From a virus (taxonomy: Duplodnaviria; Heunggongvirae; Uroviricota; Caudoviricetes): a DNA stretch of 64,000 nucleotides. The notes beneath the pieces are model-generated. The model worked only from the letters and a program-made list of their open reading frames with translations. It ran no database searches and was not told the DNA's origin. Both the position numbers and the translations under genes were made by a program. The stretch spans positions 70,193 through 134,192 of IMG/VR virus record IMGVR_UViG_3300046507_000526; one strand, given 5' to 3'. Below, piece by piece: positions 2,935 through 46,390 of this stretch (positions are counted from its first letter, which is position 1; each line of letters starts with the position of its first letter).

Positions 2935-3210
2935 ATGACAACTAAAGCACAACTTATTAACTCTATCAGCGCAGACCTCGGTATCACCAAGAAGGCAGCA
3001 GCTGGTTTCCTCAACTCCTTTGCCAAGACGGTACAAACCGATCTCAGCGCAGGAGAAGCTCTGATTCCGGGTATCGGTAAACTGAAGACTCGTGATCGTG
3101 CAGCTCGTTCGGGCCGTAACCCTCGCACAGGTGAAGCTCTTCAGATCTCGGCTCGTAAGACTATTCGTCTTGCTGCTTCGAAGGGTCTCAAGGCGCTCGT
3201 TAACGCTTAA
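2935..3210 (+). CDS. HU/IHF-like histone-like DNA-binding protein
   Basis: 91 aa; C-terminal arm motif RNPRTGEALQISARKTIRLAASKGLK typical of HU/IHF beta-arm. Confidence 0.8.
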   Translation: MTTKAQLINSISADLGITKKAAAGFLNSFAKTVQTDLSAGEALIPGIGKLKTRDRAARSGRNPRTGEALQISARKTIRLAASKGLKALVNA

Positions 3211-3244
3211 AGAAAATACCAATTATTGGTATAAGAGTGTTGTA

Positions 3245-3270
3245 AGCCAGGCAATTGTCTGGCTTTTTTT
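3245..3270 (+). terminator. rho-independent terminator
   Basis: hairpin AGCCAGGCAATTGTCTGGCT followed by T7. Confidence 0.6.
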
Positions 3271-3282
3271 ATTGGTGTTTAA

Positions 3283-3642
3283 ATGCAAGATAAAGAATTA
3301 CTTTTGGTGTGGGCTCGTACAGAGCATAGCGAGTCGTTTACCGACAATGAAGGTACACCTTCGGGTGGGGCCGGTGGCAAAACAGAACTAAGAGGTGTCG
3401 CTTCGGATATGGTCTCTGCAATCGGATTGATATGGACAGACTATGCTCAGCTATTCGATGAAAGCGATCTGGACCAGAAAGACTTTCCCCTGGTGGAGAA
3501 ACAGAACGACGGAGAAGGGGATTATCTGGAAGTCGTAATAGAGCAAAATGTTTCAAATGAAGACGGCCAAGGTCACTATAAACAAACGATCCAGTGGTAC
3601 GTTGAAGAAATTACTTTAAATACTCTTATTGATGAAGATTGA
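3283..3642 (+). CDS. hypothetical acidic protein
   Basis: 119 aa ORF, D/E rich. Confidence 0.5.
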   Translation: MQDKELLLVWARTEHSESFTDNEGTPSGGAGGKTELRGVASDMVSAIGLIWTDYAQLFDESDLDQKDFPLVEKQNDGEGDYLEVVIEQNVSNEDGQGHYKQTIQWYVEEITLNTLIDED

Positions 3643-3645
3643 ACC

Positions 3646-4602
3646 ATGAAACTTAATCAGCCTTTCCGTCGTCCCTCTCTCAACTCTGAAGAACGTGTTG
3701 CTTTCAATACACCGGAGCCGGTTAAGGCTGAAGTTTCAGAACCGGTTATTCCTCCGCTCGTTTCAAATAAACCGGAAATGCCTTCTCTGGTAAAAACTGA
3801 GACTTCTGAACCGGCACTTCCTAAATTGGAACGAGTGCAAAAGAAACAAGTTGAACTATCGCCCCCACAATCCGCAGCGGAAGTTAAGGCTACGGCAGAA
3901 CCTGAAACTTCAGGCGGGGTGCCGAAACTTGTGAAAGAGGAAAAGCCTGCGGTAGCATGGCCTTTCTCAACAGATGAACAAAAGGATTTGCAAGAAGAGC
4001 TTCAGACAGAAATGGCTAAGCCTGCAGTTCCTGAACTTCAACAGCCCGTTGCTATTCCGAAGCTTGAAATCACTAAGGGCAATGGCGAGGTTAAGAAGGT
4101 CGACATCCCTGCACTCGATGCTTACAACAAGATGGAAGTCGTTCATCTGTTGATAGGGCGTTCTTCAGAGGACGAAGAAATCGTTTTGCTCCAATCTTTT
4201 TCGGAGAGATTCGTCAGAACAAAAAACAAGGATGAATTCAACCAGAGTGTCTATGCTCGTATCAGCGCTCACTACCAAGCGATGTTCTCTACTCATCAGT
4301 ACGATTTGTATGAGCGTCGAGCCCATCACAGTATACAAGTTCAAACTGTTACTCCTCAGCTCGCCAACAAGGGAGTCGAGTGGGTTGCGGCTTTGGCTGA
4401 TGATGGGCTACCTGCTGGAACCGATACTCAAGCATACGCAAACTCAGAAGGTATAAGCACGGAGGATGCGTTGACTGAAATCAGAGAATATGGTCTTTTC
4501 CGAAACCCCGCATCATTCATCTACACCTGGGCTTTGGTGAAAGTGAAAATCGGGCACGACTTCGGTTCATATCGACTCTCTGAGTTGATGCCGACTCTGT
4601 AA
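3646..4602 (+). CDS. hypothetical protein with Pro/Glu/Lys-rich N-terminal half
   Basis: 318 aa ORF; low-complexity PEP/PAL repeats then globular C-terminus. Confidence 0.5.
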   Translation: MKLNQPFRRPSLNSEERVAFNTPEPVKAEVSEPVIPPLVSNKPEMPSLVKTETSEPALPKLERVQKKQVELSPPQSAAEVKATAEPETSGGVPKLVKEEKPAVAWPFSTDEQKDLQEELQTEMAKPAVPELQQPVAIPKLEITKGNGEVKKVDIPALDAYNKMEVVHLLIGRSSEDEEIVLLQSFSERFVRTKNKDEFNQSVYARISAHYQAMFSTHQYDLYERRAHHSIQVQTVTPQLANKGVEWVAALADDGLPAGTDTQAYANSEGISTEDALTEIREYGLFRNPASFIYTWALVKVKIGHDFGSYRLSELMPTL

Positions 4603-4605
4603 CCA

Positions 4606-4636
4606 AGGAGGGGCCATTCGGCTCCTTCTTTTTTTA
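4606..4636 (+). terminator. rho-independent terminator
   Basis: GGGGCC-ATTC-GGCTCC hairpin followed by TTCTTTTTTT. Confidence 0.6.
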
Positions 4637-4779
4637 GCCGATCAGAGAGGCTGAAGAGACCTACCTTAGGTTGGGTATCAATTAGGCATAGCAGCCTGTC
4701 CTAGGCCTTGTACGCAAGCCTCAGATACATTCGTGTCCGATCTTTGTACTTCTTTTTCGGACATCAAATGAGATGTTTT

Positions 4780-5330
4780 AAAAACTGGACAGATGGCCAT
4801 TTCAAAATCTCCTTTAAAATCAACAACTTACGACAATGTGTCCAATTTGTCCAAAATCAAAAATAAAACTGGACAGCCGCAAACCCATACTGGGCTTGGC
4901 TTTCAGCGGATTTGTCCAATTGTCCTGGTTTTTTTTCAAACCATACCTCACTTTCTAATAGAGAAATAAAAAACAAAAAAAGAAAAACTTAGGGTTCACC
5001 CTAACAGTCACAGAATCCGGGGGTCTTATATATATATAATATTTGAACTTTTTAAAAAATATATTTATATATAAGAGAGGTATTTCTCTTTTTGCAAAAA
5101 GATGTGTGTTGCTATTTATAAGTGAGGTATGGTTTGAAAAAAAACCAGGACAATTGGACAAATCGTCTGAAAGCTAAGCTGGGCCTACGTTTGCGGCTGT
5201 CCAATTTCTAAATTTAAAAAGGACGTTTTTGGACACGTCTCATAAGCTCTTGATTTTAAAGAGAAATCTCAAAATAAAACTGGACACCATTTTTGGACAC
5301 ATTCAAAGTCATCATTCCTAGGGGTTTTTG
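4780..5330. repeat. iteron-rich palindromic element, copy 1 (TGGACA/TGTCCA iterons, about 95-bp inverted repeat arms 4869-4952 and 5121-5210, AT-rich core 4953-5120)
   Basis: about 10 TGGACA-type iterons; right arm is reverse complement of left arm (about 90 percent); core TATATATATAAT...TATATATAAG; copy 2 at 63741-63990. Confidence 0.6.
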
Positions 5331-5337
5331 GTATAAG
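5329..5337 (+). promoter_or_regulatory. TGGTATAAG promoter motif
   Basis: conserved extended -10-like box. Confidence 0.4.
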
Positions 5338-5434
5338 TAAAGTATGGAGAAGAACTGTTGATTTCGCCTTCAGCAATTCCTCTCAACCTTGAATAGGGTC
5401 TACGGTTTCGTAGGGCCTTGACAAGTTGGTCTTT

Positions 5435-5472
5435 TACCGGCAGCTGATCCCCAAGTCTTCAGCCGGTTTTTT
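5435..5472 (+). terminator. terminator/attenuator-like hairpin
   Basis: CCGGCAGCTG...CAGCCGG followed by T8, directly upstream of thg1-like start. Confidence 0.4.
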
Positions 5473-5484
5473 TTGGTAAATGAA

Positions 5485-6327
5485 ATGGACGACAACGTAC
5501 AATCTATTGAACAAATCCGTCACCTTGACTTTAACGCTCTCGGTGACCAGATGAAGATGTATGAGAAGAAGTACAACAGCGAATACCTGATGCCCGGTTT
5601 GCCGATTGTGATCAGATTCGATGGCAACGCTTTTCATACCTTTACGAAGCACATGCAAAAGCCTTACGACAAAGATCTTGCTCAGACTTTCCAGTGCACG
5701 GTCGATGATCTTATCAGGGAGTTGAATCCTGATCTTGCGTATCATCAAAGTGATGAGATCAGTCTGTTCTGGTTTAACCATGACACTACCAAGCAGTTGG
5801 CATTTGATGGCAAAGTACAGAAATGGCTCAGCGTATACGCAGCCAAATGTACAGCTATCTTTAATAGCTTCCTGCAAGGGTTCATGCCTGAAAGCTATTT
5901 GATGAGACCTGTGTTTGATGCCCGAGTTTTCCAGTTCCCACGCTGGGACTTTGCATACGACTATTTCGTGTGGCGTCAATGGGATGCTAGAAAGAATAGC
6001 GTAAGCATGGCTGCACATCACTACTTTACCAACTCAGAGCTTCACGGCGTGAATACTGCCGAGAAAATTGAGATGTTGCATAAGGTAGGCGTTAATTTTG
6101 CAGAGTATCCGGAATCTTTTAGACAAGGCACGTTCACCCGTAAGGTAAAACGTCTGATGCCTATTGATGACGAAACCTGGGCTCGTATCCCCGATAAGAA
6201 CAAACCTGAAAACAGATTTGTAGAACGTAGTTTCATCGGAGTAGTTAAAGGTGTACCTAAGCTTACTTCCCTGACAGTAAGCAACGGTAGTTTTCAAATC
6301 TTTCATTCTGACTATAGCGTTGCCTAA
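5485..6327 (+). CDS. Thg1-like protein (tRNA-His guanylyltransferase family 3'-5' nucleotidyltransferase)
   Basis: IVIRFDGNAFHTFTK and AYHQSDEISLFWF match Thg1 motifs vRiDGr.FhkF and gqSDEySFvf; FVWRQWDARKNS matches WRQ.D..NN; ORF track start 5473 is TTG, first ATG 5485. Confidence 0.8.
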   Translation: MDDNVQSIEQIRHLDFNALGDQMKMYEKKYNSEYLMPGLPIVIRFDGNAFHTFTKHMQKPYDKDLAQTFQCTVDDLIRELNPDLAYHQSDEISLFWFNHDTTKQLAFDGKVQKWLSVYAAKCTAIFNSFLQGFMPESYLMRPVFDARVFQFPRWDFAYDYFVWRQWDARKNSVSMAAHHYFTNSELHGVNTAEKIEMLHKVGVNFAEYPESFRQGTFTRKVKRLMPIDDETWARIPDKNKPENRFVERSFIGVVKGVPKLTSLTVSNGSFQIFHSDYSVA

Positions 6328-6344
6328 ATTAGTAGCAACAATTG

Positions 6345-6353
6345 CGGTATAAG
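6345..6353 (+). promoter_or_regulatory. CGGTATAAG promoter-like motif
   Basis: variant of TGGTATAAG box upstream of polymerase gene. Confidence 0.3.
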
Positions 6354-6424
6354 CGTACTACCAGGAAGATAGCCTGGTGGTACAATGTATTTTTAAGAGA
6401 GGTAACACAGTGGTAAAACTCGCC

Positions 6425-7666
6425 GACATGGCGCTAAACGACTTGTATGCAAAACCAAAGATTACAAGTACAGTAGAGGCGGTTATTCATGTTAAAGAAG
6501 ATTTCAGCAAAATCAGCCCGACGTATTGTGAACGGGTCTGTAAGCTGAAGTGCAAGAATTATGAATCTGTTTCTTTAGCCAAGAAAGAACTGGATATTCT
6601 GATTATTCAGGATCACGCTGCACCAGATGGTAAGTGGGATAAATACTCCGGTCAACAAGAGCAGCAAATGCAGGACATTATCTTCCATCTCTGTAAAGCA
6701 GCAGGGTTCGGAGATCTGAAGTATAAGCTGGTAGATTTATTGAAGTGCCCGCCAACGGAAGAGGACTTTCCTAAGGGTAAAGCGCCGACGGCAACGACGT
6801 TGATGAAATGTCGACCGTACTTGTGGCAGGAAATTGAATCGTGTAAACCTAAGATTATTATCAGCTTGGCCACTGCAGTGACTAAAGCGTTGGGTTACAA
6901 GAAACATAGTAATTCTGGGAACCGTGGTGAGTACGTGGATAATGTCGTAATCACGATCCATCCTAGGGCGTTGACAATGATTCGTCAGAACGCCTCAGGA
7001 GCATTTTGGGGTCAAGAGTTGTATGGGGTTATCCTTCGGGACTTCAAGAAGGCAGCAGCGATGGCCAGGGGTGAGTTGAATCCTCCGAAGCTGGAAGATG
7101 CGATCAAGTTTTACAAAGAGAATCGTATTCGAGTAGCAGAGTCGATTGAAGACGTAAAAGAGTACATGGGTATTCTTAATTCGTTACCAATATCTGCGAT
7201 TATTAGCGTAGATACTGAAACCGTAGGATTCGATGGGCTAGCCCCAGATGCAAAGCTATTGTGTATTCAATTTGGATATAGAGATCCGGTTGATAAAGTA
7301 GTTAAAGCATTGGTCGTTCCGTTGTGGCATAGAGAGAACACGTTCTATAGCGGTGATGAAGCTTGGACGTTGGTGAAACCGTTCTTAGAAGGTGAACAGC
7401 CGAAAGTTTTGCATAATGGCAAGTTCGATATACTGTATATATGGTTTACTACGAAGGTTAGAGTTAGAAATGTAGCGTTTGATACTCTTCTTCTTTTACA
7501 TAGTTTGGATTCAGGCGCACAAGGTACGTATTCGCTTAAAACTGCAGTTTGGGACATTGTTCCCTGGTCTGGGCTCGGAGGCTATGAAGATCTACTTCCC
7601 AAATTGACCAAAGCAAAAGATCTTGAAGAAGAAACAGAAGAAGAAGGTGAAGTAGATGGCGATTAA
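6425..7666 (+). CDS. DNA polymerase I-like, N-terminal polypeptide: UDG-like domain plus 3'-5' exonuclease Exo I and Exo II motifs
   Basis: IISVDTETVGFDG (Exo I) and KVLHNGKFDILYI (Exo II); N-terminal region with degenerate family-4 UDG-like layout (ITIHPRAL); ORF track begins at GTG 6377, first ATG 6425; acidic tail EEETEEEGEVDGD. Confidence 0.7.
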   Translation, partial: DMALNDLYAKPKITSTVEAVIHVKEDFSKISPTYCERVCKLKCKNYESVSLAKKELDILIIQDHAAPDGKWDKYSGQQEQQMQDIIFHLCKAAGFGDLKYKLVDLLKCPPTEEDFPKGKAPTATTLMKCRPYLWQEIESCKPKIIISLATAVTKALGYKKHSNSGNRGEYVDNVVITIHPRALTMIRQNASGAFWGQELYGVILRDFKKAAAMARGELNPPKLEDAIKFYKENRIRVAESIEDVKEYMGILNSLPISAIISVDTETVGFDGLAPDAKLLCIQFGYRDPVDKVVKALVVPLWHRENTFYSGDEAWTLVKPFLEGEQPKVLHNGKFDILYIWFTTKVRVRNVAFDTLLLLHSLDSGAQGTYSLKTAVWDIVPWSGLGGYEDLLPKLTKAKDLEEETEEEGEVDGD

Positions 7667-9362
7667 GCGTATAGCACCCAAGGCTAAGAAGCCAATTGCA
7701 GAAATGCTGGAAGAGAAGATTGTCGAAAAAGCAGTAGAAGCACCTGCAGAAAAGAAAGCGCGGAAGAAGAAAGAGCCAACCGTAGTTGAAGTGCCTGAAG
7801 AAAAGAAGATCTATCGTACATACGAAGATTATCCGTATGCTGACCTGATGACTTATGCTGGTATCGATAATATCGTAACGTCGGAAGTTCTAACAGCACT
7901 GTGGCCCGACTTGGTAAAGCCGCAAGAACTGTTGATGCCACAGAAGAACGGCCAGCCCAAGAAGATCAAGGCTCCTGGAATTATCAAGTCCGTTGTCGAG
8001 ACTGAAATGCTCTGTCATGAGTTCATTATCAATCTCGAAATTAACGGAATGCTTTATGACATAGCACGTAACCGTGCAATTTCGAAGCAGATGGTTGAGG
8101 AAGTAGCAGAGTTCGAAGAGAAGATCTTCAGCGCTATTGGGAAACGAATCAATCTTGATTCCGGTACAGAAGTAGGCAAGTACCTGTATGAAGAACTAGG
8201 GCTTGAGGCTCCATTCAAGACAAAGTCTGGTGACGATGCAACTGACGGTGCGGCACTTTTGACGCTGGCGGGTTTGAATCCGTTGGCTAACCAGTACACA
8301 GCTCCGGATCCAGCCAAGCAGTTTTTGGCGGATATGGCTAAGAGAAAGGATATTAATAGTGTCCATAACACCTTCATTAAAACGTATGTTGAAGACTTTG
8401 TTCGCTCGGATGGTCGCATTCATCCTAGCTACAACATGTTTGGTACTAGCAGCTTTCGGATCACTGGGGATAGCCCAAATCTTACACAGCTACCTAGGCC
8501 TAAGCACGGGTACAACGTACGTGAATGTTATACTGTGGCTGACGGGAATGTATTTATTGCATTTGACTTTAGCTCAGCGGAAGTAAAAATCCTCGGTGCA
8601 ATCTGCCGAGATAAGAACATGCTGAAGGCGATTTCTGAAGGTCTTGATTTTCACTCGTTCTCGGCAAGTGCAATGATGGGTGTGCCCTATGAAGAGTACA
8701 TTCATATTCTTGAAGACGATTCACATCCGCTGAAGAAAGAGTACAAGCGTATGCGACAAGTTGCAAAAGTTCTGACGTTCTCAATCCTTTATGGTTCGTC
8801 AGTAAACGGTATTGCAATGCAGTTGCAGTTAGAGAAGAGCGAAGCGGAACGTCTGGTTAATATGTACTTCAATGCGTATCCTGGTGTTAAGGACTATATT
8901 GATGAGTCGCATCAGATGGCACTGTTGAACCAGAAAGTATGGACACCTTTTGGTCAGTACAAGCACGAGTATGTTGCTCAGCCTGCGTTCAAGCGTACCG
9001 CAGCATATAACGCATCACTGCGCAATGCACAGAACGTTCGTATTCAAAGTGCAACGTCTACGCTGGGTCTGGTAACGTTTGCACATCTGGATCAGGCAAT
9101 TCAGAAGATTGACCCACGCTGCAAGAGTATCTGTACCGTGTATGACTCGGTGGAGTTCGAAGTGCCGCAGGAACGTGCAGCAGAAGTGATTGAAACAGCG
9201 TTCTATTACATGAACGAATGGCCTGTCCAACATTTCGATTGGCTTGATCTCCCGATTGGTGTTGAAGGTGAAATTGGATTTAACTGGGGTCAGGTGAAAG
9301 AAGTTAAGCCTGGCATTACGCAAGAAGCGGTAAATGAGATGTTAATGAAGATGAGAGCGTAA
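7656..9362 (+). CDS. DNA polymerase I-like, C-terminal polypeptide: Exo III motif plus family A polymerase domain
   Basis: YAGIDNIVT (Exo III, Y-x3-D); motif A FDFSSAEVKILG, motif B RMRQVAKVLTFSILYG, motif C TVYDSVEFEV; ATG overlaps upstream stop by 11 nt. Confidence 0.85.
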   Translation: MAIKRIAPKAKKPIAEMLEEKIVEKAVEAPAEKKARKKKEPTVVEVPEEKKIYRTYEDYPYADLMTYAGIDNIVTSEVLTALWPDLVKPQELLMPQKNGQPKKIKAPGIIKSVVETEMLCHEFIINLEINGMLYDIARNRAISKQMVEEVAEFEEKIFSAIGKRINLDSGTEVGKYLYEELGLEAPFKTKSGDDATDGAALLTLAGLNPLANQYTAPDPAKQFLADMAKRKDINSVHNTFIKTYVEDFVRSDGRIHPSYNMFGTSSFRITGDSPNLTQLPRPKHGYNVRECYTVADGNVFIAFDFSSAEVKILGAICRDKNMLKAISEGLDFHSFSASAMMGVPYEEYIHILEDDSHPLKKEYKRMRQVAKVLTFSILYGSSVNGIAMQLQLEKSEAERLVNMYFNAYPGVKDYIDESHQMALLNQKVWTPFGQYKHEYVAQPAFKRTAAYNASLRNAQNVRIQSATSTLGLVTFAHLDQAIQKIDPRCKSICTVYDSVEFEVPQERAAEVIETAFYYMNEWPVQHFDWLDLPIGVEGEIGFNWGQVKEVKPGITQEAVNEMLMKMRA

Positions 9363-9363
9363 A

Positions 9364-9816
9364 ATGGCTGAACAAGTAACTATCTATACAGACGGGGCTT
9401 GTTCAGGCAACCCTGGACCAGGCGGATTTGCATATTATGCAATCGATTCCCAAACTAATAAAATGATGGAGCAATGTTCTGGTGGCGAAAAAGCTACGAC
9501 TAATAATCGTATGGAATTAATGGCCGTCATTACAGCTTTGGAATCTTTTCTTCAAGGAAAACCGAACGAGATTCTGGTTGTAACAGATTCCAAATATGTG
9601 CTGCAAGGAATGACGGAATGGATCAAAGGTTGGAAAGCCAAAAATTGGATAGGTTCTAATAAGCAGCCTGTAAAGAATCGTGATTTATGGGAACGACTTG
9701 ATAAGGTTTGCGCACAACATCCTAATTTGAAATGGAAGTGGGTTAAAGGCCATTCCGGAGATGTGTACAACGAAATAGTTGATAAACTGGCGGTTGAAGC
9801 AATTCCAAAGGAGTAA
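9364..9816 (+). CDS. rnhA: ribonuclease H (RNase HI)
   Basis: TDGACSGNPGPGG, NNRMEL, VTDSKYV, VKGHSGDVYNEIVDKLA catalytic DEDD layout. Confidence 0.9.
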   Translation: MAEQVTIYTDGACSGNPGPGGFAYYAIDSQTNKMMEQCSGGEKATTNNRMELMAVITALESFLQGKPNEILVVTDSKYVLQGMTEWIKGWKAKNWIGSNKQPVKNRDLWERLDKVCAQHPNLKWKWVKGHSGDVYNEIVDKLAVEAIPKE

Positions 9817-9819
9817 GGC

Positions 9820-10563
9820 ATGATTGAGGTTGGCGTAACTATCACCGGTGCAGATGATCAGGTTGATCCTGATATTCTAGACGAGATCGGACATGAGTAC
9901 TCTGATGTTATCCAAGTAGAATGGGGTGTTCTGTTTTCTAAATCCCGAGAAGGCCAACCGCGTTATCCGACTGCTCAATGGCGAGAACAGTTTTATGGCG
10001 CAACGTTTAATCGCGGCAGCCTCTATTCTATTGCAGCACACTTGTGCGGTAAAAGCGTAGACGTTTTTCTTAGCTCATATGAACACTTCGAAAATGAAGT
10101 AACGATGGGCTTTAATGCAATTCAGTTCAACAAACTCACGGCTGAAAATAAGGAACAGATTTTCGACTTCGCTCATGAGCGCGGTGAAACCTGCGACATT
10201 ATCCTTCAGTACAACCAAAACACAGACGTACTTTTAAACGGGATGTTCGAAGATGAAGTTCCTAACGATATCAAAATCCTGCATGATGCTTCCGGTGGAC
10301 GCGGTACTTCTTATCTTGAGACTGGCGGTTGGCCAGACGCACCTGAACCGTTTGCGAGTAGGTTGGCAGTTGGCTACGCAGGCGGGATCGGACCAGAAAA
10401 CGTAGAGCAGACTTTGACTGAGCTTCTCCGGAAGTATAAAGGCAAAGATGGGTTCTTCTGGATTGACATGGAATCAGGAGTCCGGACTGAAGATCAGTTT
10501 GATATTGATAAAGTGATCGTTGTTCTTGAAAAAGCAAAGAAAATCGTAATGGAGAATAGATAA
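9820..10563 (+). CDS. TIM-barrel protein with phosphoribosylanthranilate isomerase (TrpF)-like phosphate-binding motifs
   Basis: GYAGGIGPENV resembles TrpF GGL.peNV; C-terminal IDMESGVRTEDQFDIDKV resembles TrpF D.nSgVE...G.KD; function unknown. Confidence 0.45.
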   Translation: MIEVGVTITGADDQVDPDILDEIGHEYSDVIQVEWGVLFSKSREGQPRYPTAQWREQFYGATFNRGSLYSIAAHLCGKSVDVFLSSYEHFENEVTMGFNAIQFNKLTAENKEQIFDFAHERGETCDIILQYNQNTDVLLNGMFEDEVPNDIKILHDASGGRGTSYLETGGWPDAPEPFASRLAVGYAGGIGPENVEQTLTELLRKYKGKDGFFWIDMESGVRTEDQFDIDKVIVVLEKAKKIVMENR

Positions 10564-10784
10564 TGGATTGGTATTTTTGCTTAGCGTTGATATTTTATGT
10601 AGTCTGGTGTGTCGGCGCACATGTTCTGCATCTTCGGAATAGATTAGATAAATTTGATGTAATCATGGCAAGCATACTTGGGGTTCCCTTCAGTGCGTTT
10701 TGGCCCATAGTAACAATAAGCTTTGTCATGTTTTGGGTAGTAAGATTTCTGGCAAAACTGGTTGTTAAATACACTAGAGGTTAG
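10563..10784 (+). CDS. small membrane protein
   Basis: 73 aa, two hydrophobic helices. Confidence 0.4.
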   Translation: MDWYFCLALIFYVVWCVGAHVLHLRNRLDKFDVIMASILGVPFSAFWPIVTISFVMFWVVRFLAKLVVKYTRG

Positions 10785-10786
10785 TA

Positions 10787-11791
10787 ATGGGCGGTAACGC
10801 ACTTAAACTTGAAACGGTTCGGCTTGAGAAGAAGTATTACGACCACGTAGCTGCTGGAACCGCCGAAGTACTTCAAACTGCATTTCCCAAAGCTAAAGTC
10901 GCAGTCATTCCGTCGTACGGAGAAAAGGAAAGTTTTGGAGATCTAGACGTTTTGATCTCTGGAATTTCTATGGATAAACTTCGGGAGTTCGTAACTCAGA
11001 AACTGAACTCTCCTGAATACTTCCAGAATGGCAATGTCCTTTCGTTTGGTTTAGAGATTACTGCCTTGCTTATGAAGAAGGCAATTTTCCAGATTGATTT
11101 CATTACGATACCAGAGGAAGACTTCGACTTTGCCTTGAACTACTTTGCCTATAACGATCTCGGAAACCTTATCGGTCAAACAGCTCATGGCATTGGATTG
11201 AAATTTGGGCATGATGGGCTCTGGTATAAATACATTATCGAAACACAGTTGGTTAAAGAAATCTGTATCACGAAAGACTTCGATACAGCTCTTCGTATTC
11301 TCGGATATAGTGTCTCCGATTACAAACGTGGTTTTCAAACTCTTGATGATATCTTTACATACGCTGTAAGTAGTGAGAATTTCAGCACATGGAATTATCA
11401 ACTTGAAAATCGGAATCACGTAGGTCGTATTCGAGATAAGAAACGAAAGACCTATATGGCATTTCTGGAGTGGATGGAGGACAAGGGCCTCCCTGGTGAA
11501 AGACAGGATAGAGATCTCGGTCTTGTATTGGCTGACTACAATGTCCCAGCAGTATCTTTCGAATTCATGATTACAACGCTGAATCACTTCAAAGTTGAAC
11601 GTGTCAAGAAGAAGTTTAGCGGAGAGAAAGTATCAGAGTGGACTGGACTTACCGGAAAAGAACTCGGTCAATTCATGAATGAATATCGAGGTCTTGATAG
11701 AGAACTGTTTATAAATCAAATGGATTTAACACCTACTGATAAAGTAGAAAAAGAAGTTAAAGAATTCTTTGAAAAATGGAGTAAGAAATGA
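10787..11791 (+). CDS. putative nucleotidyltransferase (Pol-beta superfamily-like G-x8-DLD motif)
   Basis: PSYGEKESFGDLDVLI fits hG[GS]...DhDh signature of Pol-beta NTases; no closer family assignable by eye. Confidence 0.4.
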   Translation: MGGNALKLETVRLEKKYYDHVAAGTAEVLQTAFPKAKVAVIPSYGEKESFGDLDVLISGISMDKLREFVTQKLNSPEYFQNGNVLSFGLEITALLMKKAIFQIDFITIPEEDFDFALNYFAYNDLGNLIGQTAHGIGLKFGHDGLWYKYIIETQLVKEICITKDFDTALRILGYSVSDYKRGFQTLDDIFTYAVSSENFSTWNYQLENRNHVGRIRDKKRKTYMAFLEWMEDKGLPGERQDRDLGLVLADYNVPAVSFEFMITTLNHFKVERVKKKFSGEKVSEWTGLTGKELGQFMNEYRGLDRELFINQMDLTPTDKVEKEVKEFFEKWSKK

Positions 11792-11979
11792 CGCTCACTG
11801 TTCACTTACAATGGTGGATGATCCCCGCTCTCATCACCATTCTTAGTTATTGCTGGGCTTTCTTTTGGCCTTTCAAAGACAACACTGGATTTATGGCTGG
11901 GCTTGTAAACCTGTTTGCACTTATTCCAGCTTCAGGGGTTTCTCTTATTGCATGGATTATTGCGGGATTTATGAAATGA
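11788..11979 (+). CDS. small membrane protein
   Basis: 63 aa, hydrophobic, start overlaps upstream stop. Confidence 0.4.
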   Translation: MTLTVHLQWWMIPALITILSYCWAFFWPFKDNTGFMAGLVNLFALIPASGVSLIAWIIAGFMK

Positions 11980-12209
11980 CTTGCGATCATATAATTCAAC
12001 TACCCGATAAATATGTTACCTGGACAGACGATTGGACCGGCGAAGAAATGAGCGAATGGGAATACAATCGTACAGAGAGTGCATTAACCGATATTGATAC
12101 TCATCGAATGAAGTGCTCTAAATGTGGCAAGATTGAATACTACTCTGGAGCAGCTCGTGCTTATTATACTGAAGGTAAACGTTCACCTGGAATTAGGGGA
12201 TTAGAATGA
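11976..12209 (+). CDS. small Cys-containing protein (possible zinc ribbon)
   Basis: internal ATG of ORF 11850; CDH...CSKCGK. Confidence 0.35.
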   Translation: MTCDHIIQLPDKYVTWTDDWTGEEMSEWEYNRTESALTDIDTHRMKCSKCGKIEYYSGAARAYYTEGKRSPGIRGLE

Positions 12210-12385
12210 CTGAAGCTCTCGAACATTGCCCTGAATGTGGCGAATCTAAAAAGTCTAATCTTGTCAACACGCCGGTATGGTTTGAATGTAAAACCTGTGG
12301 ATATTGCGAAGATGTCTTTAAAGGACCGGTAGCAACGTTTATTCGTATGCGTGATCCAGCAGGTCCACTTACTCAATACCTATAG
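12206..12385 (+). CDS. small zinc-ribbon protein (59 aa)
   Basis: CPECG...CKTCGYC; below ORF-track size cutoff. Confidence 0.3.
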   Translation: MTEALEHCPECGESKKSNLVNTPVWFECKTCGYCEDVFKGPVATFIRMRDPAGPLTQYL

Positions 12386-12390
12386 ATTTT

Positions 12391-12399
12391 TGGTATAAG
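12391..12399 (+). promoter_or_regulatory. TGGTATAAG promoter motif
   Basis: conserved box upstream of hen1. Confidence 0.4.
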
Positions 12400-12471
12400 A
12401 AAAGCATTAGGGGCAAGATACGTCTTGTCATTATATTGTTACTTTTAGCTCACTAACCACAAGGTGGAATA

Positions 12472-13773
12472 ATGGCCGTACTTACGATAGGTTCTTCGAA
12501 CCCTAAATTTTCCTGGATCATTTCCAAAAACCCTGCAACTATCCGGGAGAAAGGTGAGCCGTACAAAAAAGAGATCCGTCAAGGCAATGCATATGGCTGG
12601 TTTCTCACCAATGACCAGTCTTTTCGTCTCTGGTTTCGGGATAATCCTTTGACGTGTTCGTTTGCAGAAGGAATCAATGCGGAATTCGAGTATCTTGACC
12701 GCACTCGTTACGCTTCTCCTTACTTGCCGATTTCGTTGATCACGAACTGTCTGGCAACTGCATTCAAACAATCCCAAGAGGAAGATGAAGAAAAACCGTG
12801 GTCTGCATTTCTCACGACGACGGTAGAAATTCGAAGTGCTAGCATGCTTCGTCATCTCACAGAACACTTTAACGGGGCATTTGGATTTGACAAAGGGTAT
12901 AGCTTCACTGCTCAGAAATTAGCGGGCAACGCCTACGACGTCCATATTCAAGGCCCGAGCGTTCACAAGATGCTCAACGCTGCAATGGTTATTTTCCTGA
13001 TGTTCTGTGTTTCGACAAAAGGCATCTACATCAACCTCAAGGGGGATATCGTTGAGAAATACATTGCTGCAATTAACCGCATCAATGCTCCTTATTTTAT
13101 CCGGTATCTCTTTAAACGGAACGTGTTCTCAAATCGTGACACATTTCTTAAGAACAAATCGCTGCTTGATACGAACGAGATTTCGCTCTGGCACGGTGAC
13201 ACCCTTGCTCAGCGTAAAGAAGCTATCTTCCCCCACCTGGAAGGCGGAGCAATGCTTGTTGACATTGGGTGCGGTGAACTCAATTACACGCTCCCGCTCA
13301 GTTCGAAATATGAACAGGTCCTTGCGTTTGAAGCGGATGACGAACTCCGTGAAAACATGCTCGGAAAACTCAAAGGCCGAGAAGTCGAAAACGTTGTTCT
13401 CCGAGATGCTGCAACTCCCGAATCGATTGATGAGTGTTCCTCGCTCCTTAGCGGAGCAGACGTGCTCATCACAGAAGTTCTGGAGCACATTCCTCTTAAA
13501 GATGCAAGAGAGCTTGTTAATTCCGTTCTGAAAACTGAATTTAACAAGTTGGTTATCACGGTTCCGAACAAGGCTTTCAACGTGAACTATCTGATGGGAG
13601 AAGATGAGTTCCGTCACGATGATCACAAGTGGGAAATGACTCACGACGAATTTGAAGATTGGATTCTTCGTTCGAAATTCCCTGAATGGACTGAAGTTGA
13701 AATTAGAGGTATTGGCGATTCTGTCAACGGCACATTCACTTCCACGATGGTTGTTTTCTCCAAGAACAAATAA
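12472..13773 (+). CDS. hen1: Hen1-like RNA 3'-terminal 2'-O-methyltransferase (bacterial Hen1 architecture)
   Basis: C-terminal class I SAM MTase motifs MLVDIGCGELNY, VLAFEADDEL, DVLITEVLEHIP; about 430 aa with N-terminal non-MTase domain as in bacterial Hen1; directly upstream of pnkp. Confidence 0.7.
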   Translation: MAVLTIGSSNPKFSWIISKNPATIREKGEPYKKEIRQGNAYGWFLTNDQSFRLWFRDNPLTCSFAEGINAEFEYLDRTRYASPYLPISLITNCLATAFKQSQEEDEEKPWSAFLTTTVEIRSASMLRHLTEHFNGAFGFDKGYSFTAQKLAGNAYDVHIQGPSVHKMLNAAMVIFLMFCVSTKGIYINLKGDIVEKYIAAINRINAPYFIRYLFKRNVFSNRDTFLKNKSLLDTNEISLWHGDTLAQRKEAIFPHLEGGAMLVDIGCGELNYTLPLSSKYEQVLAFEADDELRENMLGKLKGREVENVVLRDAATPESIDECSSLLSGADVLITEVLEHIPLKDARELVNSVLKTEFNKLVITVPNKAFNVNYLMGEDEFRHDDHKWEMTHDEFEDWILRSKFPEWTEVEIRGIGDSVNGTFTSTMVVFSKNK

Positions 13774-13782
13774 GGACTTACC

Positions 13783-16203
13783 ATGAAAATTCAAACCAAG
13801 CTTCACACCGTGTTTATCCTGGTTGGCCCTTCTATGTGCGGCAAGTCGACGTTTTCCCTTGAGTTGCAGCACGCTCTAGGAGAACAGATGCGTAAAGCTG
13901 GACTGGGCGGTTCGTGTTCGATTCCCGTCATCAGTTCCGATGCGGAGCGAGAAAGTCTTTACGGCTACAAGAATCTCCATCGTTACGCACCTTTGATGAT
14001 GGAAGCCTCAGCTTCGGCCTTCGAAGTCCTTATGGCCAGGTACAAGGCAGCGATCTCGTTCCCGATCAATAGCGAATTCGTGATCATCGACACGACTGGC
14101 ATGAACGATACGTTCCGCAAGCAAATTCGTGAACTGGCCGAGGAAAAGGAATATCGTACTGAGTTGGTTACTTTCGAGTACTCCAACTATCAGTATTGGT
14201 CGGAATCCAATGCAGAAGAAAAGGTCATCGTCGAGTCGAGTGCCAAGCGATTCAAGCAGAGCGTCCTCCCGAATCTGGGGCGTAAAGATCACGACGGCTG
14301 TATCCGTGTGCGTGAACGTGACAAGAATTTCTGGCGTGACCTCGAAGTTGAGATTGAAGATCTGCAAAAGTACGCAGCTACTCAGTTGTATCTCAATAAG
14401 GACATGCAGATCAATATCATCGGAGATGTGCACGAACATGTCGAAGCGCTGGAAGAACTTCTTGTCAAACTCCCTGCTGGGAGCATCAACGTTATGGTGG
14501 GAGATTACATTGATAAGGGCAATGACACAGCAAATGCCATTGCTGCAGCTCGTAGGTTCCACGCTTCTGGTGGTATTATTGTTCACGGCAATCACGAGTC
14601 GTATGCTGTGAAACGTATCAAGGGAGAAATTAAGAACCCTGATCTGGAAATGGAAGCAAAGTACATGACTTCACTCAATGTACTGCTGAAAGATCCTGCG
14701 CTTGCAGCTGAGCTTGTAGATCTCTTCGACCTTTGTTCTGTACCTTTCCTCAAAATTCACGGTCATAACGTTCGTACCCTTTACGTTACCCATGCTCCTT
14801 GCGAGCAGAAATATCTGGGTAAGATGAGCCCTGCAGCACTTAAGGCTCAACGTAACCTGTACGGGGATCGTAAAGAAGACTACCGGAAGGCATATGACTT
14901 TATCTTTAAAGAAGCAGTTGGCAATTTCCCTTTGCATGTGTTTGGTCATGTTGCCCATAATGCTTCAAAGCTCGAATATCGGAACAAGATTTTTATCGAT
15001 ACCGGTGCTGTGTATGGCAATGCTCTTTCTGCTTTGTGCTATAAGGGAAACCGCTATTGGATCGAGTCTGTTAAGGCGACTGAAAAAGTAACGGTACATA
15101 AGGAACTTCAAAACTTCCTTACGCAACCTATTGCAGCTCCGGAAAAGCCCTTCAGCATCTACGACTATAAGTTGTCGCCTGATGATATGAAGTTCTTGAA
15201 GCGTACAATCGCAAACCGCGTTCAGTACATTTCCGGAACTATGGCACCAGCTCCGTCGACCAGCACTGAGATTGAAAGTCTGAAGGCTGGACTGGACTAT
15301 TTCCGTAACAAAGGCACGACGAAGGTAATTCTGGAACCGAAGTACATGGGTTCACGTTGCCAGATGTATCTGTTCCGTGGCCAACGCGAGAAATGCTTCC
15401 TGGTTTCCCGCAATGGTTTCAAGATTCGAATGAATGAAAAGCTTGACGCAATGCTTGACGCCGAGCTTGCGAAGTATGAAGCTTTGAGTCTTGATTTCTG
15501 GAATGAGTCAATGATTCTAGACGGCGAGCTTCTTCCTTGGACTACTCTCGGCGCTTCCTTGGTCGAAGAGCAATTCAAGGCGTATGAAGAGCTTGTACGT
15601 TACGAACTGGAAACTCTTGCAGGGGATGCGGAATTTGTGAAGCTTAACTTCAAGCAAAAGCCTGATTTATTAGCACGTCTGGCCGATCTGGCAACGTTCA
15701 AGAAAACCCTTGCAATCTACGGAGCAGAAGCCGATCCTTTCTATAAACCTTTTGCAATTCTGAAAATTGATAGCGAGGCCATGGGGAATAAATTTGAGGT
15801 TGCAGATTCGTTCGATACTCTCAACGAAGACGAATGTCGTGTCCTGCGTTTGGATAACGAATTCACTGACCAAACAGCGCAAGAATTCTTCGAAGCGTTG
15901 ACCGTAGATCGTAAAATGGAAGGCGTCGTCATTAAGCCTCTCGATGGTCCGGAAGATGTAGCACCGTACATGAAGGTTCGGAATGAGAATTATCTGACAC
16001 TTGTGTATGGCTACGACTATAAGAACCGTTACGAAGCTCTTTGCCGCCAGAAGAAGGTTGGTGGTAAACTACGTGTCTCCATTAAGGAGCATGATCTCGC
16101 AATGGCAATGCTTAATGTAGACAACGGCCCTGCCATGACTGAATTGATTGTGAAAATGATCTCACAACTCAATGAAGAAAAGGCTTTGGATCCTCGTCTG
16201 TAA
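13783..16203 (+). CDS. pnkp: bacterial-type polynucleotide kinase-phosphatase with C-terminal ligase-like adenylyltransferase domain (Pnkp)
   Basis: P-loop kinase VGPSMCGKST; calcineurin-like phosphoesterase GDVHEH...GDYIDKG...GNHES; C-terminal nucleotidyltransferase motif EPKYMGSRCQ; three-domain order matches bacterial Pnkp. Confidence 0.85.
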   Translation: MKIQTKLHTVFILVGPSMCGKSTFSLELQHALGEQMRKAGLGGSCSIPVISSDAERESLYGYKNLHRYAPLMMEASASAFEVLMARYKAAISFPINSEFVIIDTTGMNDTFRKQIRELAEEKEYRTELVTFEYSNYQYWSESNAEEKVIVESSAKRFKQSVLPNLGRKDHDGCIRVRERDKNFWRDLEVEIEDLQKYAATQLYLNKDMQINIIGDVHEHVEALEELLVKLPAGSINVMVGDYIDKGNDTANAIAAARRFHASGGIIVHGNHESYAVKRIKGEIKNPDLEMEAKYMTSLNVLLKDPALAAELVDLFDLCSVPFLKIHGHNVRTLYVTHAPCEQKYLGKMSPAALKAQRNLYGDRKEDYRKAYDFIFKEAVGNFPLHVFGHVAHNASKLEYRNKIFIDTGAVYGNALSALCYKGNRYWIESVKATEKVTVHKELQNFLTQPIAAPEKPFSIYDYKLSPDDMKFLKRTIANRVQYISGTMAPAPSTSTEIESLKAGLDYFRNKGTTKVILEPKYMGSRCQMYLFRGQREKCFLVSRNGFKIRMNEKLDAMLDAELAKYEALSLDFWNESMILDGELLPWTTLGASLVEEQFKAYEELVRYELETLAGDAEFVKLNFKQKPDLLARLADLATFKKTLAIYGAEADPFYKPFAILKIDSEAMGNKFEVADSFDTLNEDECRVLRLDNEFTDQTAQEFFEALTVDRKMEGVVIKPLDGPEDVAPYMKVRNENYLTLVYGYDYKNRYEALCRQKKVGGKLRVSIKEHDLAMAMLNVDNGPAMTELIVKMISQLNEEKALDPRL

Positions 16204-24187: not shown

Positions 24188-24274
24188 GGGACTGTGGTGA
24201 AATTGGCTATACACGTCAGCCTTAGAAGCTGATGCCCTTGAGGCGTGTGGGTTCGACTCCCACCAGTCCTACCA
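24188..24274 (+). tRNA. tRNA-Leu(UAG), type II, CCA encoded
   Basis: acceptor GGGACTG/CAGTCCT, anticodon loop CTTAGAA, long variable arm. Confidence 0.8.
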
Positions 24275-24282
24275 CTATCTGT

Positions 24283-24358
24283 TGCGGTGTAGTTCAGTTG
24301 GTAGAACAACGGATTTTGATTCCGTGTGTCACAGGTTCGAGTCCTGTCGCCGTTGCCA
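24283..24358 (+). tRNA. tRNA-Gln(UUG), CCA encoded
   Basis: D-arm GTTCAGTTGGTAGAAC, anticodon stem ACGGA/TCCGT, loop TTTTGAT; U1-U72 mismatch. Confidence 0.7.
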
Positions 24359-30840: not shown

Positions 30841-30916
30841 GGGAACATAGCTCAATTGGCAGAGTAGCGGTCTTCAAAACCGTTGGTTTCGGGTTCGAGT
30901 CCCGATGTTCTCACCA
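30841..30916 (+). tRNA. tRNA with anticodon UCA (UGA reader; opal-suppressor / tRNA-Trp-like), CCA encoded
   Basis: canonical 76-nt cloverleaf: acceptor GGGAACA/TGTTCTC, D-arm GCTCAATTGGCAGAGT, anticodon stem GCGGT/ACCGT, loop CTTCAAA, T-arm TCGGGTTCGAGTCCCGA; resembles tRNA-Trp with C34 to U. Confidence 0.75.
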
Positions 30917-31620: not shown

Positions 31621-31688
31621 TAAACAATAGCTCAATCGGTAGAGCACACATCCATGTGAAGCTGGGGGTTCGAGTCCCCCTTGTTTTA
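31621..31688 (+). ncRNA. short tRNA-like gene (68 nt) with truncated anticodon arm; possible tRNA pseudogene or minimal tRNA
   Basis: acceptor TAAACAA/TTGTTTT (U1-U72 mismatch), D-arm GCTCAATCGGTAGAGC, T-arm GGGGGTTCGAGTCCCCC, but only 12 nt (CACATCCATGTG) where the 17-nt anticodon arm should be. Confidence 0.35.
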
Positions 31689-31691
31689 GTT

Positions 31692-31768
31692 GGGCCATTA
31701 GCTCAGTTGGTAAGAGCAGCGAACTCATAATTCGTTGGTCGCTGGTTCAAGTCCAGCATGGCCCACCA
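31692..31768 (+). tRNA. tRNA-Met or Ile2 (CAU), CCA encoded
   Basis: acceptor GGGCCAT/ATGGCCC, anticodon stem GCGAA/TTCGT, loop CTCATAA. Confidence 0.75.
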
Positions 31769-46309: not shown

Positions 46310-46325
46310 ACAAACGTAGCAATTG

Positions 46326-46334: not shown

Positions 46335-46390
46335 CAAGGTGTCGAGGGATAATATCTCGGCACCTTTTTTCTTTAGTCAGGAGATTTAAA

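Follow-up and report, generated by a model that had tools for sequence, protein, structure and literature searches.

What does the phage gene at positions 5485 to 6327 encode, on which RNA would its product act, and how would it be expressed? An earlier note on this DNA had read it as a Thg1-like 3'-5' nucleotidyltransferase that repairs tRNA 5' ends, placed behind a possible attenuator and perhaps forming part of a complete kit for maintaining tRNA ends. The explanation that we favor, and consider fairly probable as a whole, is that the gene encodes a Thg1-like protein (TLP) of the TLP clade, that 5'-end repair of tRNAs is its most likely job, and that it has its own promoter-like element and a leader ending in a terminator-like hairpin and U8. 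The window in what follows is the whole 64-kb stretch of DNA that was analyzed.

Family, predicted fold and catalytic residues

5485 to 6327, + strand: TLP gene, 280 aa, assigned from PF04446, PHROG 4717, PDB 4kgk and an AF2 model

The reading frame runs from an ATG at 5485 to a TAA at 6325 to 6327. An alternative in-frame TTG at 5473 falls within a run of T, and the TLP genes of relatives start at the equivalent ATG. The assignment to the Thg1-like nucleotidyltransferases is borne out by family matches far beyond chance: the protein matches Pfam PF04446 (Thg1) with 96.7 bits against a cutoff of 29.2 (E = 1.3e-27; profile positions 2 to 130 of 130), PHROG 4717 with an E value of 4e-73, and BtTLP, the TLP of Bacillus thuringiensis (PDB 4kgk), over residues 17 to 215 with an E value of 1.7e-35. 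The yeast and Candida Thg1 structures are matched at E values of ~1e-12, and human Thg1 and a Methanosarcina TLP at ~1e-9. The second Pfam family against which the earlier note had proposed to check the protein, Thg1C (PF14413), reached 20.9 bits, under its threshold of 26.3, so only the PF04446 part of that check came out positive. The AF2 model (pLDDT 87.5) has BtTLP chains as its top Foldseek matches (E = 1e-16; ~31 to 38% identity in the alignments), and all 32 matches at E ≤ 0.001 are Thg1 or TLP chains. By sequence and predicted fold, then, the product of 5485 to 6327 is a member of the Thg1 superfamily and of its TLP clade.

The three peptides that had been singled out as catalytic motifs are all found in the translation (IVIRFDGNAFHTFTK, residues 41 to 55; AYHQSDEISLFWF, residues 85 to 97; FVWRQWDARKNS, residues 161 to 172). 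D46 and D90 align with D30 and D75 of BtTLP, which have been named as its two metal ligands (PMC3701042). Residues K24, E27, R44, D46, G47, S89-D90-E91, K113, R147, W163-R164, D167, and N171 are invariant among 27 homologues. At the position of the eukaryotic HINNLYN motif, which is absent, TLP has R169-K-N-S-V-S-M175 and BtTLP has SKNSISM. Here, R169 aligns with H154 of yeast Thg1, and M175 aligns with BtTLP M158, whose role has been described (PMC3701042) and which occupies the position of N161 in the yeast enzyme and N158 in the human enzyme. The intact metal and catalytic residues, together with RKNSVSM in place of HINNLYN, point to a 3'-5' polymerase of the TLP clade, and the product is predicted to be an active, template-dependent one that acts on RNA. 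An insertion of ~30 residues in the C-terminal beta-hairpin region (about 221 to 250, ...IPDKNKPEN...) is common to TLP and homologues P0019 to P0038; within the present homologue set, this subgroup occurs only in phage or phage-like contexts.

An initial protein scan of IMG/VR with TLP gave zero matches, and no exact DNA relatives of 3000 to 14000 were found among GenBank phages; relatives were obtained through a protein database and a DNA pattern. Sixteen of them share 69 to 84% identity with TLP and have kept its length, which indicates that the gene is under selection. More widely, 162 GenBank phage records contain TLP homologues. Phage TLPs are thus already known from GenBank annotation and the literature, and in this respect the TLP gene is ordinary.

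Neighboring genes and the tRNA array

Whether the gene belongs to a repair set depends in part on its surroundings, of which these features are relevant:

6345 to 6383, + strand: next promoter-like element, GCGGTATAAG, and a conserved 5' hairpin; the PolA exonuclease gene follows, probably starting at GTG 6410
10787 to 11791, + strand: nucleotidyltransferase (NTase), 334 aa, with a palm and thumb like those of family X polymerases; not CCA type
12472 to 13773, + strand: Hen1-like RNA 3'-terminal 2'-O-methyltransferase (Hen1_N, E = 4.8e-50, plus a methyltransferase region)
13783 to 16203, + strand: Pnkp, a single protein that combines polynucleotide kinase, phosphatase, and ligase modules (Pfam AAA_33, Metallophos, and PNKP_ligase)
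22379 to 43812, + strand: tRNA array of 21 tRNA genes and one tRNA-like gene (20 found by ARAGORN; Rfam adds 31621 to 31688 and 42929 to 42999)

The order TLP, UDG/exo, PolA, RNase H, a 247-aa protein, an NTase of ~335 aa, Hen1, and Pnkp is conserved in four relatives (L002, L003, L008, and L010), and its proximal part is visible in three more (L004, L005, and L007). A repeat-rich, AT-centered intergenic region lies upstream of TLP, and the genes directly downstream are for DNA replication, not RNA repair. The element at 6345 to 6383 is kept in L002, L008, L010, and L009, and its hairpin covaries, which suggests that the replication genes are independent of the TLP promoter. With a conserved promoter of their own, their adjacency to TLP need not be functional. 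In other phage lineages, TLP has no consistent neighbors that we could find, of RNA repair or any other kind, and polymerase genes do not adjoin it in the phages examined.

The complete tRNA-end maintenance kit proposed for this phage proves to be overstated. Pnkp and Hen1 are real: their genes adjoin each other 6 to 7 kb downstream of TLP, and their products match the NCBIfam models partially (bacter_Hen1, E = 2.4e-16; bacter_Pnkp), with scores so far under the equivalog cutoffs that they must be distant members. The phage also encodes a Ro60 homologue. The NTase, which had been offered as a possible enzyme for tRNA 3' ends, is not supported in that role. It resembles family X DNA polymerases rather than tRNA nucleotidyltransferases, so that a CCA-adding enzyme was rejected, as was RlaP; a Pfam search at E ≤ 10 returned no family for it, RlaP (PF10127) included.

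The tRNA array lacks only two specificities, tRNA-His and tRNA-Gly, and the equivalent arrays of L030, L033, and L034 also lack both. (An AAA ATPase at 31854 to 33905 worked as the anchor for locating these arrays; the protein at 27121 to 28053 was a poor one.) Even at an Rfam E value of ≤1, no weak match to tRNA-His appeared between 20 and 46 kb. The tRNA-like gene at 31621 to 31688 is conserved, contains AUGUGAA, and has no normal anticodon arm; it was considered as a hidden tRNA-His and rejected because a His anticodon arm cannot form. Separately, a crude read-through scan for stop codon recoding by a UCA or CUA suppressor tRNA was uninformative. Its one tidy candidate, 3283 to 3642 plus 3646 to 4602, in frame across a TGA, is not in frame in relative L002.

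Predicted promoter, leader and terminator-like hairpin ahead of the gene

The region ahead of the start codon contains three elements:

5328 to 5337, + strand: predicted extended -10 promoter, TTGGTATAAG, a recurrent motif; transcript start expected near 5344
5344 to 5484, + strand: conserved leader RNA of ~141 nt, with two 5' hairpins, an invariant single-stranded UUGGUCUUU(U/G)ACC, and then the terminator-like element
5436 to 5474, + strand: intrinsic-terminator-like element, composed of a hairpin (5436 to 5467, ACCGGC...GCCGGU) and U8 (5467 to 5474), 10 nt before the ATG

We infer promoter function for 5328 to 5337. The motif TGGTATAAG has ~15 copies in the window, all on the + strand and all intergenic, and the block TTGGTATAAGTA.A.T.TGGA is invariant 5' of the TLP gene in all relatives. 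The leader has a minimum free energy (MFE) of -42.6 kcal/mol (z = -2.0), and its nucleotide identity to L008, L002, and L010 is 79 to 93%, versus 70 to 78% for the adjoining coding sequence. A search of 4600 to 5520 against Rfam at E ≤ 10 found no T-box, riboswitch, or other leader family. Of the elements treated here, this conserved leader with its terminator-like hairpin alone has no counterpart among described families.

A strong hairpin followed by T8 had been reported at 5435 to 5472. The structure exists, at slightly shifted coordinates, and it is only moderately stable: in the window it has six G+C-rich pairs under an imperfect 20-nt top, with a dG of -12 kcal/mol (z = -1.06 versus shuffles), and a simple terminator scan did not pick it up. 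Its reality is accepted on the basis of conservation and covariation in relatives, not of its stability in the window. Hairpin and U8 are present in six sequence variants (window/L008, L002, L010, L005, L013/L041, and L009), with a dG of -10 to -19 kcal/mol. The stem base ACCGG/CCGGU is kept and U8GG is invariant; the sixth stem pair is C-G, A-U, G-C, or U-A depending on the relative, within these six distinct variants only, and the upper stems are unrelated in sequence between variants, yet all pair. A metagenome scan for further leader variants returned a single contig that was already in the set.

TLP would be transcribed from the promoter-like element at 5328 to 5337 through the 141-nt leader. 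Because that leader ends in the hairpin and U8 10 nt before the ATG, expression appears to need read-through of the putative terminator, and attenuation of the TLP gene, as the earlier note had suggested, is plausible. The hairpin lies ~90 nt 3' of the promoter-like motif, which is itself predicted only. Neither the MFE fold nor the consensus fold of the leader contains an alternative, antiterminator pairing, and there is no conserved leader peptide, His rich or otherwise, since the short 5' frame varies in length and sequence among relatives. A hairpin and T-run also follow three other promoters in the window, and the arrangement may therefore not be a control specific to TLP.

There is a considerable chance, if one somewhat short of even, that the hairpin and U8 end a separate RNA, either a small RNA (sRNA) of ~130 nt made from 5328 to 5337 or intergenic transcripts, and that TLP is expressed by leakage. 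Bacterial sRNAs usually end in a single-stranded segment, then a terminator hairpin, then a long run of U, and the single-stranded UUGGUCUUU, the hairpin, and the U8 tail follow this layout. The higher conservation of the leader than of the coding sequence in the closest relatives also fits such an RNA, as does the lack of an antiterminator pairing and of any Rfam leader or riboswitch. On the other side, the gap of 10 nt between U8 and the ATG is free of promoters. Since the TLP gene is under selection, read-through must occur, it being the only visible route to expression. Termination of an sRNA and attenuation of TLP can also hold together. A more far-reaching reading, that the leader is a new cis-regulatory RNA in which a signal of tRNA or translational damage switches on read-through, seems to us quite unlikely. 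If it were true, the signal might be, for example, a tRNA that is broken or uncharged, or a protein of the phage or host, and the repair enzyme would be made only under attack on tRNAs.

RNA substrate of the enzyme and comparison with known systems

In the favored explanation, 5'-end repair of tRNAs, the enzyme would activate a 5'-monophosphate RNA end with ATP or GTP, or use a 5'-triphosphate end directly. An incoming nucleoside triphosphate (NTP) would form a Watson-Crick pair with the opposite 3' strand, and its 3'-OH would attack the activated 5' phosphate. Pyrophosphate would be released and the cycle repeated. In this way a helix with a shortened 5' strand, in most cases the acceptor stem of a tRNA, would be rebuilt in the 3'-5' direction with the help of two metal ions bound by D46, D90, and E91. 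The targets would be host or phage-encoded tRNAs short of 5' nucleotides, and TLP would act beside the Pnkp/Hen1 break repair pair, the Ro60 homologue, and the 22 tRNA and tRNA-like genes. We know of no tRNA 5'-trimming nuclease that acts on the host of this phage. In vitro, every characterized TLP from bacteria or archaea favors the repair of tRNA that is truncated at its 5' end, although the physiological substrate of bacterial TLPs is still not established (PMC6471195), and the literature searched contains no measured activity or substrate for any phage TLP.

Homologues are called tRNA-His guanylyltransferase in database sources and GenBank records, and bacterial TLPs can add a templated G-1 opposite C73 (PMC6471195). 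TLP could accordingly be a true tRNA-His guanylyltransferase, which would add G-1 to a phage tRNA-His encoded elsewhere in the genome, or to that of the host, and sustain histidine charging during infection. The absence of tRNA-His as one of only two missing specificities would make the phage depend on the tRNA-His of its host. The same absence, from the window and from the arrays of the relatives, speaks against an involvement in the maturation of a phage tRNA-His, and it may mean nothing, since tRNA-Gly is missing too. The protein itself lacks the anticodon-reading motif of G-1-adding Thg1, has a subthreshold Thg1C match, and is much nearer to the repair-type BtTLP than to eukaryotic Thg1. 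G-1 is gene encoded in most bacteria (PMC3061083), and the TLP-bearing phage XacN1 has a tRNA-His with an encoded G-1 opposite C73. We consider it unlikely that the enzyme serves as a guanylyltransferase of tRNA-His. A substrate other than tRNA is likewise doubtful, whether the 5' ends of phage transcripts, the tRNA-like RNA at 31621 to 31688, a Ro60-associated RNA, or RNA primers at the replication fork. Primers would explain why TLP consistently leads the replication block, beside an origin-like region: in all close relatives it is directly upstream of UDG/exo, PolA, and RNase H, and the repeat-rich region precedes it. However, the replication genes have their own conserved promoter, and TLP does not adjoin polymerase genes in other phages. 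Ro60 and a conserved tRNA-like RNA with an abnormal anticodon arm are at hand in this phage, and Dictyostelium TLP4 works on non-tRNA RNAs, but all TLPs tested in vitro accept tRNA (PMC6471195).

The phage tRNAs themselves suggest a third role, 5' editing, in which nucleotide 1 is replaced with U72 as the template, as in amoebal mitochondria. Position 1:72 is G.U or U.U, always with U72, in 7 of the 22 tRNA and tRNA-like genes, and the non-Watson-Crick pairs of four, Leu(UAG), Lys, Gln, and initiator-like Met, are kept in relatives; DdiTLP3 performs such editing in Dictyostelium mitochondria (PMC6471195). However, phage T5 has the same pattern in 4 of 23 tRNAs (including Gln U.U, initiator-like Met U.U, and Val G.U), and relatives of T5 are not among the 162 TLP matches, whereas TLP-bearing XacN1 has it in only 2 of 28. 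A 1:72 mismatch is normal in initiator tRNA, and a weak 1:72 pair is normal in tRNA-Gln. The conservation of the mismatches suggests that they are used as encoded, and because T5 has an equivalent pattern without a TLP, editing is rejected as very improbable.

The nearest known enzyme, the repair-type BtTLP (PDB 4kgk/4kgm), is the best match in sequence and fold, is of similar length, and shares the two metal-binding aspartates (D30/D75, equivalent to D46/D90), the SDE motif, and the WRQ.DA.KNS.SM motif, in which Met replaces the eukaryotic Asn; it differs in that the phage subgroup has the C-terminal insertion. Eukaryotic Thg1 (yeast, human, and Candida; PDB 3otb, 3wbz, and 5xox) has the same palm fold, two-metal site, and three-step chemistry. 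However, HINNLYN, with which eukaryotic Thg1 reads the GUG anticodon, is missing from TLP, whose Thg1C match is below threshold and whose E values to eukaryotic Thg1 are weaker than those to BtTLP by at least 20 orders of magnitude. Nontemplated addition of G-1 opposite A73 is therefore not expected of it.

The Thg1 homologues of large phages (201phi2-1 gp319, RsoM2USA, CcrBL9, and XacN1 ORF126/585) belong to the same family, at 34 to 44% identity. The hosts of these phages are Pseudomonas (201phi2-1), Ralstonia (RsoM2USA), Caulobacter (CcrBL9), and Xanthomonas (XacN1). Genome analyses have already placed Thg1 in phage tRNA repair sets, including that of XacN1 (Thg1, CCA enzyme, Pnkp, and Hen1), and have proposed that it restores 5' ends within them (PMC7824862, PMC5852040). 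Like the phage described here, XacN1 has Pnkp and a Hen1-like methyltransferase in addition to Thg1, as well as numerous tRNA genes and, within the tRNA region, a Band 7 protein; it differs in having tRNA-His, which was found neither in the window nor in the arrays of the present family. Large phages with TLPs are mostly jumbo phages of 300 to 630 kb, whereas the contig of the phage described here is ~134 kb and its family is ~107 to 181 kb. Unlike in the large phages, the TLP gene is found here at a constant position, leading the replication block, and behind a conserved leader that contains the terminator-like element. That leader resembles bacterial and phage attenuators and terminator-ended sRNAs in its sequence of predicted promoter, ~90 nt of structured RNA, G+C-rich hairpin with U8, and start codon, and it differs in that no conserved leader peptide, antiterminator alternative, or Rfam match was seen.

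This phage is one more well-supported case in which several RNA-mending enzymes (TLP, Pnkp/Hen1, and Ro60) are encoded beside a near-complete set of tRNAs, and it fits the view of tRNAs as a battleground between phages and bacterial defenses. TLP seems to form a unit of one gene that is served by a promoter of its own. Compared with the jumbo phages, this family of smaller phages, with its fixed gene order, would suit the study of the role of TLP in vivo.

The Thg1-like gene and its clade

The gene that the earlier note had read as Thg1-like encodes a protein referred to here as TLP, after the bacterial and archaeal clade of Thg1-like proteins:

ATG 5485 to TAA 6325-6327, + strand, TLP gene, 280 aa

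An in-frame TTG at 5473, the start in the automatic ORF list, was rejected, as this codon falls within the T-run of the upstream hairpin; all TLP relatives use the equivalent of the ATG (MDDNVQSIEQIRHLDF...). The three motif peptides cited in the note are found in the translation (residues 41-55, 85-97, and 161-172), and the Pfam Thg1 profile (PF04446) matches over its full length (96.7 bits against a cutoff of 29.2; E = 1.3e-27). The profile for the C-terminal domain family, Thg1C, stayed below threshold (20.9 bits against 26.3). PHROG 4717 (“tRNA-His guanylyltransferase”) matches with an E value of 4e-73. The solved structure closest in sequence is that of the Bacillus thuringiensis Thg1-like protein (BtTLP; PDB 4kgk; E = 1.7e-35); yeast and Candida Thg1 match at ~1e-12 and human Thg1 and the Methanosarcina TLP at ~1e-9. 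An AlphaFold model with 27 homologues as input has a pLDDT of 87.5, and its 32 significant Foldseek matches to PDB entries are all chains of Thg1 or TLP proteins, BtTLP ranking first (E = 1e-16).

D46 and D90 align with D30 and D75 of BtTLP in the HMMER alignment. The invariant residues among the 27 aligned homologues are K24, E27, R44, D46, G47, F50, P60, Q88, S89, D90, E91, K113, S116, F144, D145, R147, W163, R164, D167, N171, and G215. The HINNLYN motif is eukaryote specific, and its histidine stacks on anticodon base G36 (PMC6471195). The phage protein has RKNSVSM at this position (SKNSISM in BtTLP) and a Met at the position of BtTLP M158, which by sequence places it in the TLP clade as a predicted active enzyme and not as a eukaryote-type tRNA-His guanylyltransferase. 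The assignment to family and clade is secure, as is the predicted chemistry. The homologue alignment also reveals a subgroup, including this protein, with ~30 extra residues in the C-terminal beta-hairpin region, and all members examined are on phage or phage-like contigs. An identical protein is recorded on a 134-kb JGI contig, and 16 relatives, 69 to 84% identical, lie on contigs as long as 181 kb.

Predicted leader RNA and promoter-like motif

The motif TGGTATAAG, which looks from its sequence like an extended -10 promoter, has about 15 copies in the window, all on the + strand and ahead of genes or tRNA genes. The copy at about 5329-5337 precedes the TLP gene and lies in a block that is unchanged in every relative. 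Intergenic copies of the promoter-like motif (T)TTGGTATAAG are as follows:

3229, 5331, 12393, 16226, 22331, 30632, 31588, 35856, + strand
38358, 40101, 44605, 46328, 50941, 52952, 58969, + strand

Many of these have a stem-loop directly after them, and no -35 consensus is evident for the motif in the window. The + strand carries 24 copies of GTATAAG and the - strand none.

With its start predicted near 5344, the leader RNA would fold into two hairpins, followed by the invariant UUGGUCUUU(U/G)ACC and a terminator-like hairpin with U8GG. This last hairpin occurs in six sequence variants that share the base ACCGG/CCGGU; the upper stems keep their pairing despite different sequences, with C-G, A-U, G-C, or U-A as the sixth pair. 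Of the six, only one is weaker than the window hairpin (-12 kcal/mol). Leader identity to the three closest relatives is 79 to 93%, versus 70 to 78% for the coding sequence. The gap from U8 to the ATG is only 10 nt, and expression of TLP therefore seems to require read-through of the hairpin. For the earlier suggestion of an attenuator, the comparison across relatives supports the structure but not the mechanism. Leader folding and the relatives' variants gave no antiterminator alternative, and the leader contains no conserved leader peptide and has no Rfam match. Three other promoters in the window have a hairpin and T-run right at the transcript start, and the next gene after TLP comes with a conserved promoter-like element and 5' hairpin of its own. 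The TLP leader may act as an attenuator, a small RNA, or both.

Upstream of this leader lie ~730 bp of noncoding DNA (4602-5330), parts of which are conserved in relatives. The region contains a 96-nt imperfect inverted repeat (arms 4866-4961 and 5112-5207, 85% complementary) around an (AT)n-rich center (5024-5078) and at least 14 GGACA/TGTCC motifs (e.g., AAAACTGGACAG and TTTTTGGACAC). In five relatives the contig stops 217 to 407 nt ahead of the TLP gene, suggesting either an assembly break in the repeat region or a genome end.

tRNA genes and the probable role of TLP

ARAGORN places 20 tRNA genes in the interval 22379-43812, and two further genes come from Rfam: a tRNA-Lys(UUU) (42929-42999) and a tRNA-like gene (31621-31688). 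Neither tRNA-His nor tRNA-Gly is present in the window array, even at Rfam E ≤ 1, and the same ordered array, also without them, is found in three relatives (contig loci L030, L033, and L034); between them, the tRNAs of the conserved array serve 18 amino acids. The absence of tRNA-His from all four arrays speaks against a role for TLP in maturing a phage tRNA-His. Xanthomonas phage XacN1 has Thg1 genes together with a phage tRNA-His in which G-1, opposite C73, is encoded. Editing of tRNA 5' ends was also considered, as the 1:72 pair is G.U or U.U in 7 of the 22 tRNA and tRNA-like genes and is conserved for several tRNAs. However, T5 shows the same pattern in 4 of 23 tRNAs, against 2 of 28 in XacN1, and T5-like phages are not among the TLP matches, because Escherichia phages make up at most a handful of the 162 GenBank phage records with homologues (tblastn, each <60% identity); editing was therefore rejected. 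Repair of tRNA 5' ends is the best-supported inference for the physiological role of TLP.

The tRNA-like gene (+ strand; Rfam tRNA, 52 bits; rejected by ARAGORN) has an anticodon arm of only 12 nt (CACAU-CC-AUGUG), U1.U72, A73, and no encoded CCA. Its own TGGTATAAG promoter lies 35 nt upstream, and the next tRNA begins 3 nt downstream. Relatives keep the gene with a 6-nt “anticodon” loop (L030, ~9750-9825; L034, 9739-9811), and “tRNA-like stable RNAs” are also annotated in the tRNA region of T5. The “Met(CAU)” tRNA at 31692 has a T arm and anticodon region that we take to resemble those of E. coli tRNA-Ile2 (ileX), which would hint at a proteobacterial host. A tRNA-Trp(CCA) is found in two relatives and is absent from the window.

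A suppressor-type tRNA (30841-30916, + strand) has anticodon UCA, reading UGA; at the same position, relatives have CUA, reading UAG (L030, 8373-8448; L033, 8193-8268; L034, 8503-8578). A crude scan for stop-codon recoding yielded no clear signal. ORFs 3283-3642 and 3646-4602 (+ strand) are adjacent in the same frame, separated by TGA and one codon, and in principle could be fused by this tRNA; their counterparts in relative L002 are in different frames.

Neighboring genes and comparison with known phages

The earlier note proposed a complete kit for tRNA-end maintenance. Relevant genes are as follows:

12472-13773, Hen1 (Hen1_N, E = 4.8e-50, plus a methyltransferase region)
13783-16203, Pnkp (AAA_33 kinase, Metallophos, and PNKP_ligase domains)
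61700-63322, + strand, Ro60/Rsr homologue, 540 aa (TROVE, E = 5e-39; Ro60 vWA domain, E = 6e-56)

The domains of Pnkp and Hen1 bear out that part of the proposal, but the claim of a complete kit fails at the nucleotidyltransferase (10787-11791), the possible 3'-end enzyme. Searches of Pfam, NCBIfam, and PDB sequences gave no match for this protein, which belongs to a family of >1,400 uncharacterized proteins. Its model (pLDDT 93.7) is closest to family X DNA polymerases (top Foldseek matches, Pol lambda, beta, and mu), which identifies it, at the level of the model, as a minimal Pol X-like enzyme with a helical C-terminal half. Readings of it as a CCA-adding enzyme or as RlaP (PF10127) were rejected. 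Bacterial Ro proteins partner Y RNAs that have a tRNA-like part; no Y RNA was identified in the window, where YrlA matches were weak (31641-31744, E = 0.28; 24246-24307, E = 0.7).

In relatives L002, L003, L008, and L010, a long noncoding region is followed by TLP, the UDG-like/3'-5' exonuclease, PolA, RNase H, a 247-aa protein, a 335-aa nucleotidyltransferase, Hen1, and Pnkp. The proximal part of this order is seen in L004, L005, and L007, and L009 has a shorter kinase-phosphatase without Hen1. The family A DNA polymerase is split (6410-7666 and 7656-9362, + strand) into a protein with a UDG-superfamily domain and the 3'-5' exonuclease and a separate polymerase-domain protein, between whose genes some relatives have a 210-aa ORF. 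The 247-aa protein (9820-10563, + strand), between RNase H and the nucleotidyltransferase in all close relatives, has only a subthreshold match to PRAI (TIM barrel; E = 4.5e-4). Farther downstream, nucleotide and NAD metabolism genes (44915-50001, + strand) encode a ThyX-like protein that is long for ThyX (464 aa), a cytidylyltransferase-like/Nudix fusion, annotated in similar phages as nicotinamide-nucleotide adenylyltransferase, and NAMPT. The set resembles an NAD+ salvage pair of the sort known from phages countering NAD-depleting defenses.

Other phage lineages have no constant TLP neighbor, and the gene there sits amid small hypothetical genes. The phages with GenBank homologues are mostly those of Bacillus, Prevotella, Caulobacter, Mycobacterium, Brevundimonas, and Erwinia, along with others; many homologues are already annotated as tRNA-His guanylyltransferase, and 201phi2-1 gp319 (“putative Thg1”) is among the matches. 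A literature search found no experimental work on any phage TLP. Phage TLPs are of a kind already known: Iyer et al. (2021) place Thg1 among the jumbo-phage enzymes that restore RNA ends (PMC7824862), and XacN1 combines two Thg1 genes, a CCA enzyme, Pnkp, and a Hen1-like methyltransferase in one phage (PMC5852040).
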